The position numbers were made by a program, and so were the translations under genes. A stretch of 39,304 nt of DNA from an uncultured Gammaproteobacteria bacterium (GTDB taxonomy: Bacteria > Patescibacteriota > Microgenomatia > UBA10105). The stretch is from the NCBI GenBank assembly GCA_964387625.1, contig CAYLWN010000002.1, forward strand, positions 39,120 through 78,423, read 5' to 3'. A model generated the notes under the pieces. That model did no database searches, was not told the DNA's origin, and worked only from the letters and a program-made list of their open reading frames with translations. Below, one piece after another: positions 7,755-13,367 of the stretch. Every line of letters starts with the position of its first letter. The stretch's first letter is position 1.

Positions 7755-8483
7755 ATGTCAGGTCACAGTAAATGGTCTACGATTAAGCATCAAAAAGCTG
7801 TAACAGATAATAAACGCGGACAAATTTTTACGAAAATTGCTAATCAAATAATTATTGCTGTCAAAGAAGGTGGTAAAATTGCTGATCCGGCAGCCAATTT
7901 CCGTTTACGGCTGGTTATAGAAAAAGCCAAATCTGTAAATATGCCCAAAGATAATATTGACCGGGCAATAGAAAGAGGGATGGGAGTAAATGATGGGGGT
8001 TTGCAACTTTCGGAGATAAATTATGAAGGCTTCGGTCCAAACGTCAGTGCGTTATTAGTTAGTTGTGTAACGGATAACAGACAACGGACTGCATCATTGT
8101 TAAAAAATATTTTTTCAACTCATGGCGGTAATTTGTCGGGCGCGGGGAGTGTGGCTTATTTATTTAAAAAAGTAGGTCAACTGATGACTCCGAGAAATTA
8201 TACTCAAGATCAAATGTTGGAAATTGCAATTGACTGTAATGCTCAGGATTTGGCAGTTGAGGAAGATAATTTTCTCATATATACAGAACCAAATTTATTG
8301 CATCAGGTAAAAAATGCTTTGGAAAATAAACAGGTTCAAGTTACACTGGCAGAACTTATTTTTAAACCGGAAATACTAATAGAAGTAACAGACGCACAAA
8401 AAAATCAATTGATAAAATTATTGGAAGCTTTATATGATTCTGACGATGTACACGCAGTTTTTACTAACGTAAAATTAGTATGA
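7755..8483 (+). CDS. yebC: YebC/PmpR (TACO1) family protein
   Basis: MSGHSKWSTIKHQK, NMPKDNIDRAI, YEGFGP, TDNRQRT and DDVHAVFTN. Confidence 0.96.
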   Translation: MSGHSKWSTIKHQKAVTDNKRGQIFTKIANQIIIAVKEGGKIADPAANFRLRLVIEKAKSVNMPKDNIDRAIERGMGVNDGGLQLSEINYEGFGPNVSALLVSCVTDNRQRTASLLKNIFSTHGGNLSGAGSVAYLFKKVGQLMTPRNYTQDQMLEIAIDCNAQDLAVEEDNFLIYTEPNLLHQVKNALENKQVQVTLAELIFKPEILIEVTDAQKNQLIKLLEALYDSDDVHAVFTNVKLV

Positions 8484-9304
8484 CAAAAATAGGTAAGTTT
8501 TTTTTAAACATAAAAGATAAATTTTCTTTTTCAAAAAGACAGCAATTTGTGGGTGTTACGCTGATTTTGACTTTGGGTCTCATGTTTACGCAAATTTTTT
8601 CCGGAAATTTGAGATTTGATTTGATGCTCGTATTTGCAGTAATTACTTATTTTTTTTCAGCACTGGTGTTACGACAGGATTTATCCCGTTGGGAATGGTT
8701 GACATTACTTATTTTGCCGGCATTTTATAGTGCGGCAATTTTTCTCTTTTATTTTTTATTACCCACCCGTTGGTTAACCAGAATTCCCATTGCGATTCTT
8801 TATTCAATTGGTATGTATGCGATTTTATTAACAGAAAACATATATAATGTAGCAGCCCAAAGAAATATTCAACTGCTTAGAGCAGCCCACAGCGTGGGAT
8901 TTTTATTGTCTTTGGTAACGGTTTTTTTGCTTTCCGAAATCCTGATTTCACTACATTTACCTTATTATTTAAATAGTTTATTTACTTTATGCATTATTTT
9001 TCCATTAACTTTACAAGCTTTATGGTCGATAGAATTAACTGAAAATATTTCAGCTCTTTCATGGTGGGGAAGTGTGGTAGTTTCAGTTATTTGTGTGGGA
9101 TTGGTAGGTGTGTTTTCGTTTTGGCCGATTCCGGTAACTATTGAAGCCTTATTTGTAACAACTGTATTTTATTCATTGATTGGTATGATACAACAGCACC
9201 TAGTAGGTAGGTTATTTGAAAACACTTTACGGGAGTATTTGTTGATTTTAATTTTAGGTTTAATATTAATTATTTTTACAACACACTGGGGTTCCCGGAT
9301 ATAG
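8480..9304 (+). CDS. Conserved-looking polytopic membrane protein of unknown function
   Basis: About 8-9 hydrophobic segments and the motif LLTENIYNVAAQRNIQLLRAA. ATGA overlap with yebC. Confidence 0.8.
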   Translation: MTKIGKFFLNIKDKFSFSKRQQFVGVTLILTLGLMFTQIFSGNLRFDLMLVFAVITYFFSALVLRQDLSRWEWLTLLILPAFYSAAIFLFYFLLPTRWLTRIPIAILYSIGMYAILLTENIYNVAAQRNIQLLRAAHSVGFLLSLVTVFLLSEILISLHLPYYLNSLFTLCIIFPLTLQALWSIELTENISALSWWGSVVVSVICVGLVGVFSFWPIPVTIEALFVTTVFYSLIGMIQQHLVGRLFENTLREYLLILILGLILIIFTTHWGSRI

Positions 9305-10215
9305 ATTTTATTTATATAAATCAAGGGATAGGGAAGTGATAAAGGATTATATTGGGAATAACGCGATATGGTTTGATATAGTTAAGCCTATAGTATTGTT
9401 GATAGTTTTCACGATATTTTGCAAATTATTTCACGATTTTACTTCAATTAAACTCGCTTAATCGCTACTCTTATAAATTGAACACAAAATGTATGCGTAA
9501 TTTAAGTACTTTAGGGCCTTATTATGCTCCAAATAAAGATCATATCAATATATTTCATAAATATTTAGCTATAAATTTGTATAGTTAGAGCATTAGGAAG
9601 CCATAAATACGCCGAAACATAAACTGCTTTTGCTTAGAATGCAGCTTCAATTTTATTGCTTTAGATTGTATTGAAGCCCTAAATATGAGTATCTATCAAA
9701 TCTGTTTTGTTGACTTAACTTGATATTTAATGCCTAAATAAAGCATCATGCGGGAAATAATTAACACATAGCTTCAAAAATGAGTGTTTGGATTGTAACA
9801 AAGCTCTATTTCTCATTATTGCTAGTGTATTTATAAAATATCTTTATTTATATAACAGCCTCAAAATCTACAATTTAGAGCATAATAGAGCGCTAAATTG
9901 AGATATATTTTCATCCGAATAAAACCGAAAGCCTCTTTTTCTATACGTATATATAATTTAATCAGCGTTTACAGGTATAAAGATTCTCATCCTTAGATAA
10001 TGAAAGAGAGAGGTGTTTTATGTCTACCATGCTCTTTTGAACAATGTTAGGTAGATTGTCTAGCTACTTACTTAATATTTAAAAAAATAAATTTATTAAA
10101 TATAGCTTCAAAAATGCACACAAAAGCTATAAAAACATCAGCGTGGTAATCAATGAAGCAAGTATTATCAACTTATGAAATTGCAGTCTAATCAAAAGGA
10201 GAAGCTGATTCTATG

Positions 10216-10247
10216 CAACGTCGCACAATGATACTTTTGCGACGTTG
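10216..10247. other. Candidate dif-like Xer recombination site
   Basis: CAACGTCGCACAA-TGATAC-TTTTGCGACGTTG: 13-bp arms (12/13 inverted match) around a 6-bp asymmetric spacer, 1.36 kb from a xer gene. Confidence 0.7.
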
Positions 10248-10548
10248 ATTATGGCTAATTGAAGGAGAAGTGCTTTTAAATGCTAAACCTGTTTAATATA
10301 AATTTCTATACATTTAATAATGATAATTAATTTTATATGATTAAGCATCATGCTTTCCGCTTTACATAGTAACCCTAATTATGATGACTTTTTTTAGGGC
10401 TTATTATAGTGCAGGTCTTAATATATTTAGCAATTATCACCATTGCTATAGTTGCCACCCTAATTAAGCCGACTAATATATCGGTTTAAGAAATTTAAGC
10501 CGTCCAAGAGGCGTACAGAGGCTTACAAATTGAGGCTAAATAGCCGAT

Positions 10549-11460
10549 TTAAGATAGCAGAGATTTAAGCATTTGAAAATTTCCTACATGATCTGAAACA
10601 GGTTCAACTAAAGCATAAATATCGTTTTTTTTATAAAGAGACAACAGTTTAATCATTTCGCTTTTGTTAGGAATTGCGAGGTCTGATGTAAATTCATCAA
10701 ACAATAAAGATCCATGATAATCGGTCCCGTTATATGGTGGAATAATATAACTTACATGTAAAAGTTTTGTTTTTGTGAGCAATTTTTTTGACACAGACCA
10801 TAAATTTTCTAACAATTGAGATCGGGCTAGATTTTCTTGATTTGCCAGTGTATGTCCAAAATCATTCGCAAAATATACATTATCTATATTTAACACAGTT
10901 TTAATTATATCTATTGGTAGATCGCCAAAATCTACATAGACATTTCTATCCAGCTGACCCAGACTGTTTACCGAATAAGAATATTTAGGCACACTTTCAA
11001 TTATCAATTTTATGCCTAAATTATCTGCATAATTTGCAAGTTTATGTACTGAATTATAAAAAGTTTCTTGCAAAAGTTGTAGAGATATTTGCTTGCCAAA
11101 GGGTTTAAAATCAATGACATCGCGTTCAAAATTCACATTAGACAATACGCTGCTGCCGGGATGCATATTTACATATAGACAATTATGTTTTGAGGCCACA
11201 TTAATGGTTTGTTTAACTAATTCAATAGATTCACTTAAATTTTGCTTGTTGGGATAAGCTAAATTAACTAATGTATTATTTGAAGTATTACCCCAGAAAT
11301 GCAATCCCGCACCAATTTTCAGTTGTTTAATTTGAGAAAATAGATTGTTGTAATCAGCTATTTTGTTTACATGAAACCAGACTTCACAAAAGTCAGGAGC
11401 AGCTGAAATTAAATCCTGGTAAGAATTGTTTTTTAGTCCGACTTTGATACCTAATTTCAT
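10549..11460 (-). CDS. TIM-barrel protein, xylose isomerase-like/AP endonuclease 2 family
   Basis: Metal-ligand pattern GLH, NMHPG, LIIES, DFGH, LHV, DYH and VEP. Confidence 0.75.
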   Translation of the reverse strand: MKLGIKVGLKNNSYQDLISAAPDFCEVWFHVNKIADYNNLFSQIKQLKIGAGLHFWGNTSNNTLVNLAYPNKQNLSESIELVKQTINVASKHNCLYVNMHPGSSVLSNVNFERDVIDFKPFGKQISLQLLQETFYNSVHKLANYADNLGIKLIIESVPKYSYSVNSLGQLDRNVYVDFGDLPIDIIKTVLNIDNVYFANDFGHTLANQENLARSQLLENLWSVSKKLLTKTKLLHVSYIIPPYNGTDYHGSLLFDEFTSDLAIPNKSEMIKLLSLYKKNDIYALVEPVSDHVGNFQMLKSLLS

Positions 11461-11486: not shown

Positions 11487-11598
11487 TTGACAAAAAATTA
11501 TAGACGTCGCAAAATATATTTATTACAACGTTAAAAACGTCGTAATAAATAATTTTCATTTTACAACGCTCAAAGATCATCGCAAAATGAAAATTATT
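11487..11598 (+). promoter_or_regulatory. xer promoter overlapped by an array of dif-arm-like boxes
   Basis: TTGACA (11487-11492), 17 bp, then CAAAAT. Boxes of consensus ACGTYGYAAWA at 11504, 11521(rc), 11537, 11559(rc) and 11577. Perfect 15-bp IR 11548-11562/11584-11598. Confidence 0.65.
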
Positions 11599-11605
11599 AC
11601 ATATT

Positions 11606-12613
11606 ATGACAAATTTATTTACTTATATTGATGATTTTTTGGAATTTTTAGAAGTTGAAAAAAATGTATCTCCATTAACCATCCGAAACTACAAACATTA
11701 TTTGATGAGATTTGCCAACTGGTATAAAGAATCCTCTCCCCTGCCTGCGCCTGACTGCCTGCCTACGCAGTCAGGCGTAGGCAGGCAGTCAGGCCTTTCA
11801 GGTGTCTCTCAAATAAATTCTGACACGATCAGACATTACAGATTATATTTAACCAGGTTAACAGATACACATAATTTGACTCTTAAAAGAGTGACCCAGA
11901 ATTATCATTTGATTGCACTGCGGGCTTTTTTACGGTTTTTAGTCAAGAAAGATATTAAAACTTTGGCTCCCGAAAAAATTGATCTAGGCAAGACAGAATC
12001 GCATAGTTTGAAATTTTTAAATAAAGATCAATTAACACGTTTGGTTAATCAACCGGATATAGCTACTGTTTTCGGCTTGAGGGATAAAGCGATACTGGAA
12101 TTATTATTTTCTACAGGTTTACGGGTATCAGAACTGGTGAAACTAAACCGTGATCAAATAGATTTTACGACACGGGAAATCGGTATTATCGGTAAAGGTG
12201 GTAGAGCCAGGGTGGTATTTATTTCAGACGCCGCATCAAAGTGGTTGCAACGATATTTAAGTTATAGAGAAGATAAATACAAACCTTTATTTGTCCGTTA
12301 TTCAGGAAAAAAAGTTACCAAAGATCAAGGCGAAGAAGGAATCAGGTTATCAGCCAGAAGTATTCAAAGATCTGTTGAAAAATATGTAAAAAAAGCTAAA
12401 TTGCCTATCAAAATTACTCCTCATGGGTTACGGCATACATTTGCCACGGATTTGTTGACAGCAGGAGCTGATATCAGGGCCATACAAGAAATGTTGGGAC
12501 ATAAAAATATTTCCACTACTCAAATATATACACACGTTACCAATCCGCAACTTAAACAAATCCATAAAAAATTCCATGGAAAAACTGAAATAGTTGAAGA
12601 TGCAATTAAATAG
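11606..12613 (+). CDS. XerC/XerD-like tyrosine recombinase with an 18-codon palindromic insertion
   Basis: SAM-like N-domain. Catalytic motifs TGLRVSEL, GKGGRAR, TPHGLRHTFAT and LGHKNISTTQIYTH. Confidence 0.95.
   Translation: MTNLFTYIDDFLEFLEVEKNVSPLTIRNYKHYLMRFANWYKESSPLPAPDCLPTQSGVGRQSGLSGVSQINSDTIRHYRLYLTRLTDTHNLTLKRVTQNYHLIALRAFLRFLVKKDIKTLAPEKIDLGKTESHSLKFLNKDQLTRLVNQPDIATVFGLRDKAILELLFSTGLRVSELVKLNRDQIDFTTREIGIIGKGGRARVVFISDAASKWLQRYLSYREDKYKPLFVRYSGKKVTKDQGEEGIRLSARSIQRSVEKYVKKAKLPIKITPHGLRHTFATDLLTAGADIRAIQEMLGHKNISTTQIYTHVTNPQLKQIHKKFHGKTEIVEDAIK
11740..11793. repeat. 54-bp compound CCTG...CAGG palindrome in frame in xer
   Basis: Perfect 20-bp IR 11749-11768/11775-11794, with an alternative 19-bp IR 11740-11758/11767-11785 (1 mismatch). 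Confidence 0.9.
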
Positions 12614-12617
12614 ATAG

Positions 12618-13367
12618 ACAGGTCGGACCTGTTATGGAGATGGATGTGATGATATAAATTAAATTTTTATCGTATATGCCGGCAAAAAATTCTATAAAAC
12701 AATACGTTGAAAATAGCTTCTATCATATTTACAATCGGGGCGTTGATAAACGAATAATTTTTATTCAGGATTTAGATTATCAAATGTTTCTTTCATATTT
12801 AAAAAATTACTTGTCAACATTGTCTTTACAACAGGTCCGGCCTGTAAGAAAATCCACTCTTTTTTTAGAAATTGATTTAATCGCTTATTGTCTGATGCCA
12901 AATCATTTTCATTTATTGATTAAACAAAAATCAGCCAAATCAATAATTAAATTTATGCGTTGTTTAACAAATGCATACACGCGATATTTTAATACCAGAC
13001 ATAAAAGAATTGGTCATTTATTTCAAGGAAAATATAAAGCAAGTTTAATAACAGAAGATTTATATTTACTACAACTATCTCGTTATATACATAGAAATCC
13101 ATTAGAGTTATTCAGGTCAGACCTGCATAAAATATTGTCAGAATACCCTTATTCAAGTTATAAAGATTTTTTAGGATTAAGAAACACTGTTTGGGTGAAG
13201 CCAAATGAAGTATTAAATTTTTTTGCATTAGATAAGCAAAAAAATAATTTAGATTTAAATTATCAAGGTTTTGTTGAACAATTTAATAAAGACGAAAATG
13301 ATATAAACGAATTTATCTTAGAAGACAATGTCGAATGATAACAATCTAAACAACAGGTCCGATCTGT
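12618..13367 (+). mobile_element. RAYT module: Y1 transposase bracketed by inverted 15-bp palindromes, with two more copies inside the gene
   Basis: ACAGGTCGGACCTGT (12618-12632), ACAGGTCCGGCCTGT (12831-12845), CAGGTCAGACCTG (13113-13125) and ACAGGTCCGATCTGT (13353-13367). Confidence 0.8.
12676..13338 (+). CDS. REP-associated tyrosine (Y1/HUH) transposase, IS200/IS605 TnpA superfamily
   Basis: YHIYNRG, AYCLMPNHFHLL (HUH), YFN...GHLFQGKY, YIHRNP (catalytic Tyr) and YPYSSY. Confidence 0.92.
   Translation: MPAKNSIKQYVENSFYHIYNRGVDKRIIFIQDLDYQMFLSYLKNYLSTLSLQQVRPVRKSTLFLEIDLIAYCLMPNHFHLLIKQKSAKSIIKFMRCLTNAYTRYFNTRHKRIGHLFQGKYKASLITEDLYLLQLSRYIHRNPLELFRSDLHKILSEYPYSSYKDFLGLRNTVWVKPNEVLNFFALDKQKNNLDLNYQGFVEQFNKDENDINEFILEDNVE

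Follow-up and report, generated by a model that had tools for sequence, protein, structure and literature searches.

What is the function of a near-perfect 32-nt palindrome that lies in a long ORF-poor gap, close to a gene for a Xer-family recombinase, in an uncultured bacterium? We addressed this question in the window G000:C2:39120-78423, i.e. the whole 39,304-nt stretch of DNA analysed here, to which the positions given below refer. The host is a Candidatus Gottesmanbacteria MAG (Microgenomates, Patescibacteria), whose draft assembly of 1.24 Mb comprises 86 contigs, with 33% G+C and a completeness of 89.9%. An earlier note on the sequence had proposed that the palindrome is the chromosome dimer resolution site, dif, of a one-Xer system, with arms unlike the XerD arm of E. 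coli. Our literature search, in which papers were judged mostly by title and abstract, found no published description of dif or Xer for CPR/Patescibacteria.

The palindrome and its neighbourhood

The features on which the argument rests are as follows.

7755-8483, + strand: yebC-like gene, a conserved upstream neighbour of the site
8480-9304, + strand: DUF5656 gene, also a conserved upstream neighbour, which forms the left border of the gap
10216..10247, + strand: main site, a 13-6-13 imperfect palindrome with the conserved core GTCGCACAA-TGATAC-TTTTGCGAC at 10220-10243
10264..10270, + strand: GGAGAAG motif, ~20 nt 3' of the site, with a similar copy before the site at 10198-10204
10499..10541, + strand: 'block 2', a non-coding element with a hairpin-like GCC..GGY, TACAGRGGCT and repeated GAGGCT
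10549..11460, - strand: AP_endonuc_2 / xylose-isomerase-like TIM-barrel gene between block 2 and xer, found in some relatives only
11487..11515, + strand: predicted xer promoter, made of TTGACA (11487-11492), 17 nt and the -10-like CAAAAT (11510-11515), the latter within the left arm of the degenerate site
11506..11529, + strand: degenerate second site GTCGCAAAA-TATATT-TATTACAAC, over the xer promoter
11606..12613, + strand: gene of a Xer-family tyrosine recombinase of 335 aa with intact catalytic motifs, the candidate enzyme for the site
12676-13338, + strand: Y1_Tnp / REP-associated (RAYT-like) transposase-like gene, next to xer

The palindrome, CAACGTCGCACAATGATACTTTTGCGACGTTG, occupies positions 10216-10247, exactly as quoted in the earlier note, and the 11-6-11 symmetry claimed for it is present there, in the ORF-poor gap. 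It reads CAACGTCGCACAA-TGATAC-TTTTGCGACGTTG, with two 13-nt arms that differ by a single mismatch (C/T, arm position 11) on either side of the spacer TGATAC. Nested in it are an 11-6-11 core (10218-10245) and a 9-6-9 core (10220-10243). The two inverted arms of ~11 bp around a 6-8 bp centre that characterise dif-type sites are thus found here, in a 13-6-13 palindrome with one mismatch and a conserved 9-6-9 core. The arms differ at 1/11 positions, their outer parts being identical, and the polarity of the site is set by CACAA on the left versus CAAAA in the reverse complement of the right arm, together with the asymmetric spacer.

No second copy occurs in the window at up to 3 mismatches, a stringency at which 0/100 shuffles gave matches, nor in the 86-contig genome at up to 6 mismatches. 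The site is thus present once in the genome, and it is not the multi-copy repeat that the earlier note had named as an outcome contrary to its reading. As for the structure itself, a custom count found only two 13-6-13 palindromes with at most one mismatch in the window, and first-order Markov shuffles yielded 0.16 on average, with at least one in 13/100; a listing of inverted repeats ranked by length was dominated by AT-rich palindromes and uninformative. The palindrome structure by itself is only mildly improbable, and the weight of the case therefore rests on conservation.

The site sits in a 1244-nt gap (9305-10548) without ORFs of at least 50 aa. Rightward of it follow the AP-endonuclease-like gene (-), xer (+), the Y1 transposase gene (+), folD/gyrA/hppA/gyrB/holB (-) and pilus genes (+), such that the gene picture of the earlier note, with + genes on the left, the folD-holB block on the - strand and the pilus genes on the + strand, was roughly correct. 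The order yebC, DUF5656, site, optional AP-endonuclease-like gene, xer is common to both families of the taxonomic order, and the same neighbourhood was found in another order of the class (L232). The Y1 gene is absent from the conserved neighbourhood of relatives. FtsK is encoded in the genome, and the window contains no tRNA or tmRNA gene. A GC-rich palindrome, TGCCTGCCTACGCAGTCAGGCGTAGGCAGGCA, is a multi-copy repeat of this genome, with 21 matches at up to 3 mismatches on 14 contigs; one copy is in frame within xer (11756-11787), in the variable linker of the N-terminal domain. The genome also carries three Y1_Tnp genes, including the one at 12676-13338 beside xer.

Other elements accompany the site. 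The downstream GGAGAAG was found by regex in 18/36 loci, and both GGAGAAG motifs of the window precede tiny, unconserved ORFs of 11 and 16 codons. Block 2 is kept 150-350 nt 3' of the site in 56/71 loci and persists where a different module, described below, replaces the site; a cassette boundary and a small RNA are both conceivable. Upstream of the site, the ~900 nt from 9305 to 10215 contain no ORF of at least 50 aa and no Rfam match, and the stretches ~9767-9804 and ~9857-9914 resemble relatives at 78-84% identity. The flanking motifs GGAGAAGT..., GAGATGA... and ACAGAGGCTTAC resemble what we take to be the CR-I, CR-IV and CR-V regions of RNase P RNA. RNase P RNA was nevertheless rejected as an identity for the locus, where there is no Rfam match to it; a full-length RF00010 lies elsewhere in the genome, on G000:C11, and was found in 26/31 genomes searched. 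Between the promoter copy and the xer start, a 16-pair AT-rich hairpin followed by a T-run is present on the minus strand (11517-11551); it scored as terminator-like on that strand and could end the AP-endonuclease-like gene.

Conservation of the site and its linkage to xer

When the 1244-nt gap was compared by blastn with 31 genomes, nearly all matches fell at query positions 906-974, i.e. on the palindrome; the only other shared segments were three short matches of 78-84% identity farther upstream. The site is hence conserved among relatives while its flanks diverge. The core pattern GTCGCACAA-N6-TTTTGCGAC, searched with up to 2 mismatches and with the reversed pattern as a control, gave one match each in 6/6 genomes of the family (control 0). 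It occurs about once per genome in 74/87 genomes of the order, with 10 control matches over all 87, and about once per genome in 190/301 sampled genomes of the class, a count that takes in G152, flagged as unpublished. Matches in surplus of one per genome appear at the rate of the control pattern. The conservation in relatives that the earlier note had made a test of its reading thus extends to the whole class.

The consensus in relatives is GTCGCACAA-TAATAC-TTTTGCGAC. The CACAA/CAAAA difference between the arms is maintained throughout, which indicates that the polarity of the site is conserved. Spacers include TAATAC, TGATAC, TATAAC, TATATC, TAATTC and others, mostly with the first T and the last C retained. 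A hand count of arm position 5 (left, right) over 73 credible sites of the order gave 41 (C,G), 11 (T,G), 13 (C,A), 7 (T,A) and 1 (G,G). Sites changed in one arm only are common for either arm, and with an odds ratio of ~2 there is no clear coupling between the arms. Such uncoupled variation suggests that each half-site is read by a protein that tolerates a pyrimidine at this position, rather than maintained as a base pair on one transcribed strand; the pattern fits protein recognition better than base pairing.

Many contigs of relatives have one of their ends at the site or no more than 1 kb away, as in G038:C4:84-107, G041:C18:5-28 and G037:C2 (4 nt from the end), and further in G042, G067, G080, G090, G160 and G241. 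This hints at branching of the assembly graph, through strain variation or integrated elements, or at an effect of the palindrome. Some genomes have, 12-20 nt after the site, a further palindrome that shares the arm but has an 11-nt spacer (e.g. GTCGCAAAAG-N11-TTTTACGAC); it takes the place that GGAGAAG has in other genomes (loci L027/L084 in G007, L028, L045, L044, L043, L014 and L048).

The gene that travels with the site is xer. It starts 1.36 kb downstream in the window, and an orthologue (62-68% identical) lies 0.6-2.6 kb from the site in 5/5 long genomes. Among 80 loci gathered by similarity to the window Xer, 56 carry the site at up to 2 mismatches, always upstream of xer, at 321-2624 nt; in all 56, the strand on which the site has fewer mismatches is that of xer. 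The 24 loci without the site comprise 5 with less than 750 nt of upstream DNA, 6 with the type-B palindrome described below, 8 distant relatives (44-49% identity) and 5 that are unexplained (L139, L147, L159, L199 and L201). A unique, conserved site of dif architecture, linked to a Xer-family recombinase, is therefore borne out by its single copy and by these 56/80 loci, and the arms are of their own type, as the earlier note had it.

The protein is a Xer-family recombinase with its catalytic residues. Six aligned orthologues show no variation in the Arg, His-x-x-Arg, His and Tyr motifs, except for one His-to-Tyr change in L184. It scores below all equivalog cut-offs, with 247.5 versus 335 for XerC, 231 versus 330 for XerD, 213.6 versus 220 for XerA and 146 versus 267 for XerS. 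In a search of solved structures, it ties between the XerA-like 4A8E of P. abyssi and XerD of E. coli (1A0P), at 124 bits each. A second Xer-like gene (~290 aa, 30-34% identical) is found in every genome examined, 25-65 kb from dnaA. Its product also remains below the equivalog cut-offs (XerC 180, XerD 174), a conserved extended -10 promoter lies upstream of it, and no shared palindrome that might be a site of its own was found in 6/6 loci. With this conserved paralogue, the idea of a one-Xer system is not supported. As the arms of the site differ at only 1/11 positions, one protein on both arms is favoured, and we lean towards a single recombinase serving both of them. It is possible that the second Xer-like recombinase acts as a partner at the site.

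A link between arm sequence and recombinase also comes from the xer promoter. The left arm of the degenerate copy that overlaps the promoter is the same as that of the main site, and its right arm is degraded. In relatives, TTGACA followed after 14-15 nt by GTCGYACAW-N6-TTGTRnRGAC was recognised by eye upstream of xer in ~25/33 loci. The shared left arm ties the arm sequence to xer, and it suggests that Xer probably represses its own gene via the promoter copy.

Some genomes without the site harbour a different module. Thirteen genomes of the order have no site of the kind described so far (type A) at up to 2 mismatches, and the sole match in G084 is dubious. Seven of these 14 genomes (G052, G054, G010, G020, G063, G024 and G084) have CGAGTATAA-TAWCCC-TTATACTCG instead (type B); the remaining seven, 76-93% complete, show neither pattern at the same stringency. 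G001 matches both patterns, its type-A variant being odd, and one type-B match in G030 looks like chance. The type-B palindrome has a 9-6-9 layout and lies between a near-consensus promoter and the ATG of a Xer-like recombinase of ~338 aa (Pfam PF00589, 1e-33; ~189 bits for both the XerC and XerD models), which is followed by a 178-aa ORF without known family. Type-B loci are L184:357-1932, L172, L178, L182, L188 and L200, and the type occurs even in a genus with type A in its other species. A comparison inside one genus shows a common upstream context and a common block 2, between which stands either the type-A site with ~300 nt or the type-B module. This replacement in one slot is good evidence that such palindromes go with recombinases. 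No remnants of the type-A site were found flanking the type-B module. The type-A xer and its promoter copy remain at type-B loci, and this Xer is apparently intact in 4/6 of them, such that decay of the type-A Xer upon loss of its site was not seen there. The exceptions are L184, with H to Y in the LGHKN motif, L188, with a divergent C-terminal end, and one alignment with a stop. Where it is intact without a full type-A site, the protein must have another role or target.

Another variant was found in G040. Locus L231 (G040:C6:1-12500) has two variant sites in direct orientation, at 43-66 and 11616-11639, which enclose 11.6 kb. They have the same left arm, the spacer CTTYGT, the right arm TTTTATGAC and homologous right flanks. 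The enclosed stretch encodes a tyrosine recombinase (integrase), a PIF1-like helicase, a DUF2726 protein and peptidases, and it is possibly an integrated element that uses a dif-like site. G040:C6 is not a small circular element, as the contig is 63.6 kb long.

Position on the chromosome

The earlier note expected a switch of GC skew near 10.2 kb. On the scaffold of the window itself, cumulative GC skew dips over the minus-strand folD-holB block and then rises again, without a visible global switch, and the position was therefore tested in relatives. Four genomes of the order are closed, i.e. single-contig, with dnaA at 634, 479, 917 and 823 kb and the site at 128, 129, 145 and 134 degrees from it. 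In the closed genomes G299 and G171, the angle is 116 and 128 degrees by arithmetic.

In G007, one of these four, the maximum of the cumulative GC skew falls into the 5-kb bin ending at the site, and the sign of the skew flips there. In the other three (G021, G034 and G085), the absolute skew is ~0.09-0.11 on the dnaA-proximal side up to the site, then falls to 0.01-0.04 with the same sign, and the cumulative maximum is reached ~80-150 kb (8-13% of the genome) beyond the site, near the antipode of dnaA. Over 90 kb on either side, the best single change point of skew in these four genomes is displaced by +4.7, 0, +9 and -7 kb relative to the site. Net coding strand goes broadly from + to - around the site in all four, with the maximum contrast of orientation at -1.3, -26, +27 and -31 kb and the cumulative coding-strand maximum at +28.6, -26.1, +2.6 and -3.1 kb. 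We also sampled six further long contigs from five families of the class, at six offsets each. G060, G299, G171 and G112 have a step at the site, between a strongly skewed side and one with a skew of about zero, and G172 and G195 have no change of skew. Altogether, the skew changes abruptly at the site in 8/10 long or closed genomes, and gene orientation makes a clear turn there from net + to net - in 7/10, with convergence mostly within ~30 kb.

The picture of the skew is thus mixed. Most relatives have an abrupt change of magnitude and a convergence of gene orientation at the site, but the scaffold of the window has no switch, and the sign flips exactly at the site in 1/4 closed genomes. A switch lying far away, which the earlier note had regarded as contrary to its reading, is in part what G021, G034 and G085 show. 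When the 5% yardstick from Kono et al. (PMC3025954) is applied, G007 alone has the site 'near' the skew shift point. The position of the site fits a boundary of chromosomal polarity in most testable relatives (8/10). An off-centre dif has a precedent in archaea, as the account of XerA in PMC5357621 typically puts dif sites at 122-144 degrees from oriC.

On the far side of the site, a zone of at least ~100 kb combines near-zero GC skew with genes that point towards the site (G021, G007, G034, G085, G171 and G299). Possibly, this zone is replicated by a fork that passes through the site while its genes face the site, in which case the contributions to skew would cancel out. In 3/4 genomes mapped in detail, the replichores look unequal by gene orientation and about equal by skew sign.

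Competing readings and relation to known Xer systems

Could the palindrome be no more than an operator, bound by Xer as a repressor or by another factor controlling xer or its neighbours, without recombination? A related site overlaps the -10 of xer, the type-B palindrome follows a near-consensus promoter and precedes the start of its recombinase gene, and the type-A Xer persists without a full type-A site in type-B genomes, all of which would suit such a role. However, the main site is 0.3-2.6 kb away from xer, often with an opposite-strand gene in between, and no convincing promoter adjoins it: the 19 promoter-like matches compare with 15.5 +/- 3.7 in shuffles, and none is strong at the site. 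It is also far better conserved than the promoter copy, in both arms and in the T..C frame of the spacer, and it tracks the chromosomal skew boundary. We therefore consider a purely regulatory function unlikely. We are just as reserved, and hold it to be quite unlikely, that the palindrome is a recombination site with another use, i.e. attachment or cassette exchange for mobile modules, or excision together with the promoter copy in direct orientation. That the segment from the site to block 2 is variable and replaced by a recombinase module in some genomes would agree with it, as would the 11.6 kb with integrase and PIF1-like helicase genes between two direct variant sites in G040 and the contigs of relatives that end at the site or within 100 nt of it (G038:C4, G041:C18 and G037:C2). 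Nevertheless, a single copy kept across the class, beside a housekeeping-type Xer and at a skew boundary, is the behaviour of dif, and the elements that exploit Xer use dif itself, as stated in the sections of PMC5357621 drawn upon here. No credible excision joint was found in the contigs of four public runs (short Logan contigs, 3-9x depth), which speak neither for nor against recombination products. In X3 and X8, contigs run across the site, and in X5 and X10 they break off there; the two 'joints' of X8 extend on one side over no more than 24 letters, namely the conserved site common to relatives.

An RNA element, either a non-coding RNA hairpin or an attenuator with the 11-codon ORF at 10213-10248 and its Shine-Dalgarno-like AAGGAG upstream, is very improbable. 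Each strand is predicted to form a stable hairpin (-11.2 and -11.9 kcal/mol, z ~ -5), with GGAGAAG motifs at its flanks and a conserved block ~300 nt downstream, but the prediction is equally good for both strands, and no terminator-like T-run follows the hairpin. Neither the window nor the loci of 11 relatives gave an Rfam match in default or permissive mode. In 24/73 sites, a change in a single arm creates a C-A mismatch on one of the two strands, without strand preference. Frame, start and length of the mini-ORF all vary among relatives, and a leader peptide or attenuator was rejected because frame and start are not kept. As for a REP or IS200-type hairpin serviced by the Y1 (RAYT-like) transposase, the transposase-like gene at 12676-13338 brings it to mind, yet many dispersed copies would be typical of such elements, and the single copy of the site contradicts this reading; in addition, the true multi-copy GC-rich palindrome of the genome differs in sequence, and the Y1 gene is outside the conserved neighbourhood. 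We find this last proposal hardly credible.

We thus favour as probable that the adjacent Xer uses the palindrome as its recombination site, most probably for chromosome dimer resolution. What the data demonstrate is that the site is unique, conserved throughout the class, fixed in its linkage and orientation to xer, placed at a boundary of skew and gene orientation in most relatives and replaced by another recombinase-palindrome module in some genomes. The site and the Xer gene downstream would form a linked xer/dif module of dif type. Recombinase protomers would bind the two nearly identical arms, two sites of a chromosome dimer would come together in a synapse, and an exchange of strands over the 6-bp centre, TGATAC here and mostly TAATAC in relatives, would resolve the dimer at division, possibly with the assistance of the encoded FtsK. 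On the degenerate copy over the -10 of its promoter, Xer would repress its own gene. GGAGAAG and block 2 beside the site are not explained by a bare dif site.

How does this module compare with described ones? The archaeal XerA/dif system, as portrayed in the parts of PMC5357621 used here, has near-symmetric inverted arms of ~11 bp and a 6-bp centre, with xerA and dif forming one module in some genomes. Our system resembles it in its symmetric 11-6-11 site, its position off 180 degrees (116-145 from dnaA) and its xer/dif module, and the score of the window Xer on the XerA model, 213.6 bits, is just below the cut-off of 220, i.e. short of the equivalog level. In contrast, the host is a bacterium with FtsK and a second Xer-like paralogue, and the arm sequence is different. 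The XerS/difSL system of streptococci and lactococci is described in the same source as a linked module, with a 31-bp site that has an 11-bp centre and unequal arms, immediately beside xerS. The genetic linkage of recombinase gene and site is a common feature; unlike difSL, the site has a 6-bp centre and near-identical arms and is found 0.3-2.6 kb from xer, sometimes with an intervening gene, so that it does not qualify as a difSL-type site, and the Xer scores 146 on the XerS model, versus a cut-off of 267.

With XerCD/dif of E. coli and most bacteria, as outlined in the portions of PMC5357621 and PMC3025954 cited here, the system shares the 11-6-11 layout, the single copy, two Xer paralogues and FtsK. 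Unlike in XerCD, neither paralogue reaches the XerC or XerD equivalog cut-off, only one of them is linked to the site, and in most closed relatives the sign switch of the skew does not coincide with the site. Two different arms are not found either, as the difference at only 1/11 positions leaves no distinct XerC and XerD arms. In XerH/difH of Helicobacter and Campylobacter, according to the passages of PMC5357621 on this system, a single recombinase acts on unequal arms of 11 and 10 bp that differ in sequence. One recombinase on a dif-like site is thus a XerH feature that our system would share under the one-recombinase reading, which we hold to be somewhat likelier than its opposite; its near-identical arms are unlike those of difH. 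No XerH-named chain was among the eight solved-structure matches at E <= 1e-10. The closest systems are archaeal XerA/dif for the symmetry of the site, its position and the score, and XerS/difSL for the linkage of gene and site, and no equivalog cut-off is reached. We assign the site to the Xer/dif kind, with block 2, GGAGAAG, the promoter copy and the weak-skew zone as unexplained extras.

It is tempting to go further, albeit into a proposal that we regard as doubtful. The terminus-side slot might hold self-contained, exchangeable xer-plus-site modules, namely type A, with the site, xer downstream and an operator copy on the -10 of xer, and type B, with the palindrome on its own promoter, the recombinase and a 178-aa partner. 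By cassette exchange between the site and block 2, one type might take the place of the other. The site might also mark an architectural terminus that is conserved and deliberately placed off-centre, at 116-145 degrees from dnaA, and that borders a zone of at least 100 kb where genes are turned towards the replication fork and GC skew cancels out.

Patescibacteria (CPR) represent a large, almost entirely uncultured share of bacterial diversity, and the maintenance of their chromosomes has been little studied. If the dif reading is true, a marker of 24-32 nt would be available for the chromosome dimer resolution site of a whole class, and it would help to orient and check MAG assemblies and to find elements that integrate at dif. 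The compact xer/dif pair would be amenable to tests in vitro without culturing the organism. Finally, the off-centre site and its zone of near-zero skew pose a testable question about replication termination and chromosome polarity in small genomes.
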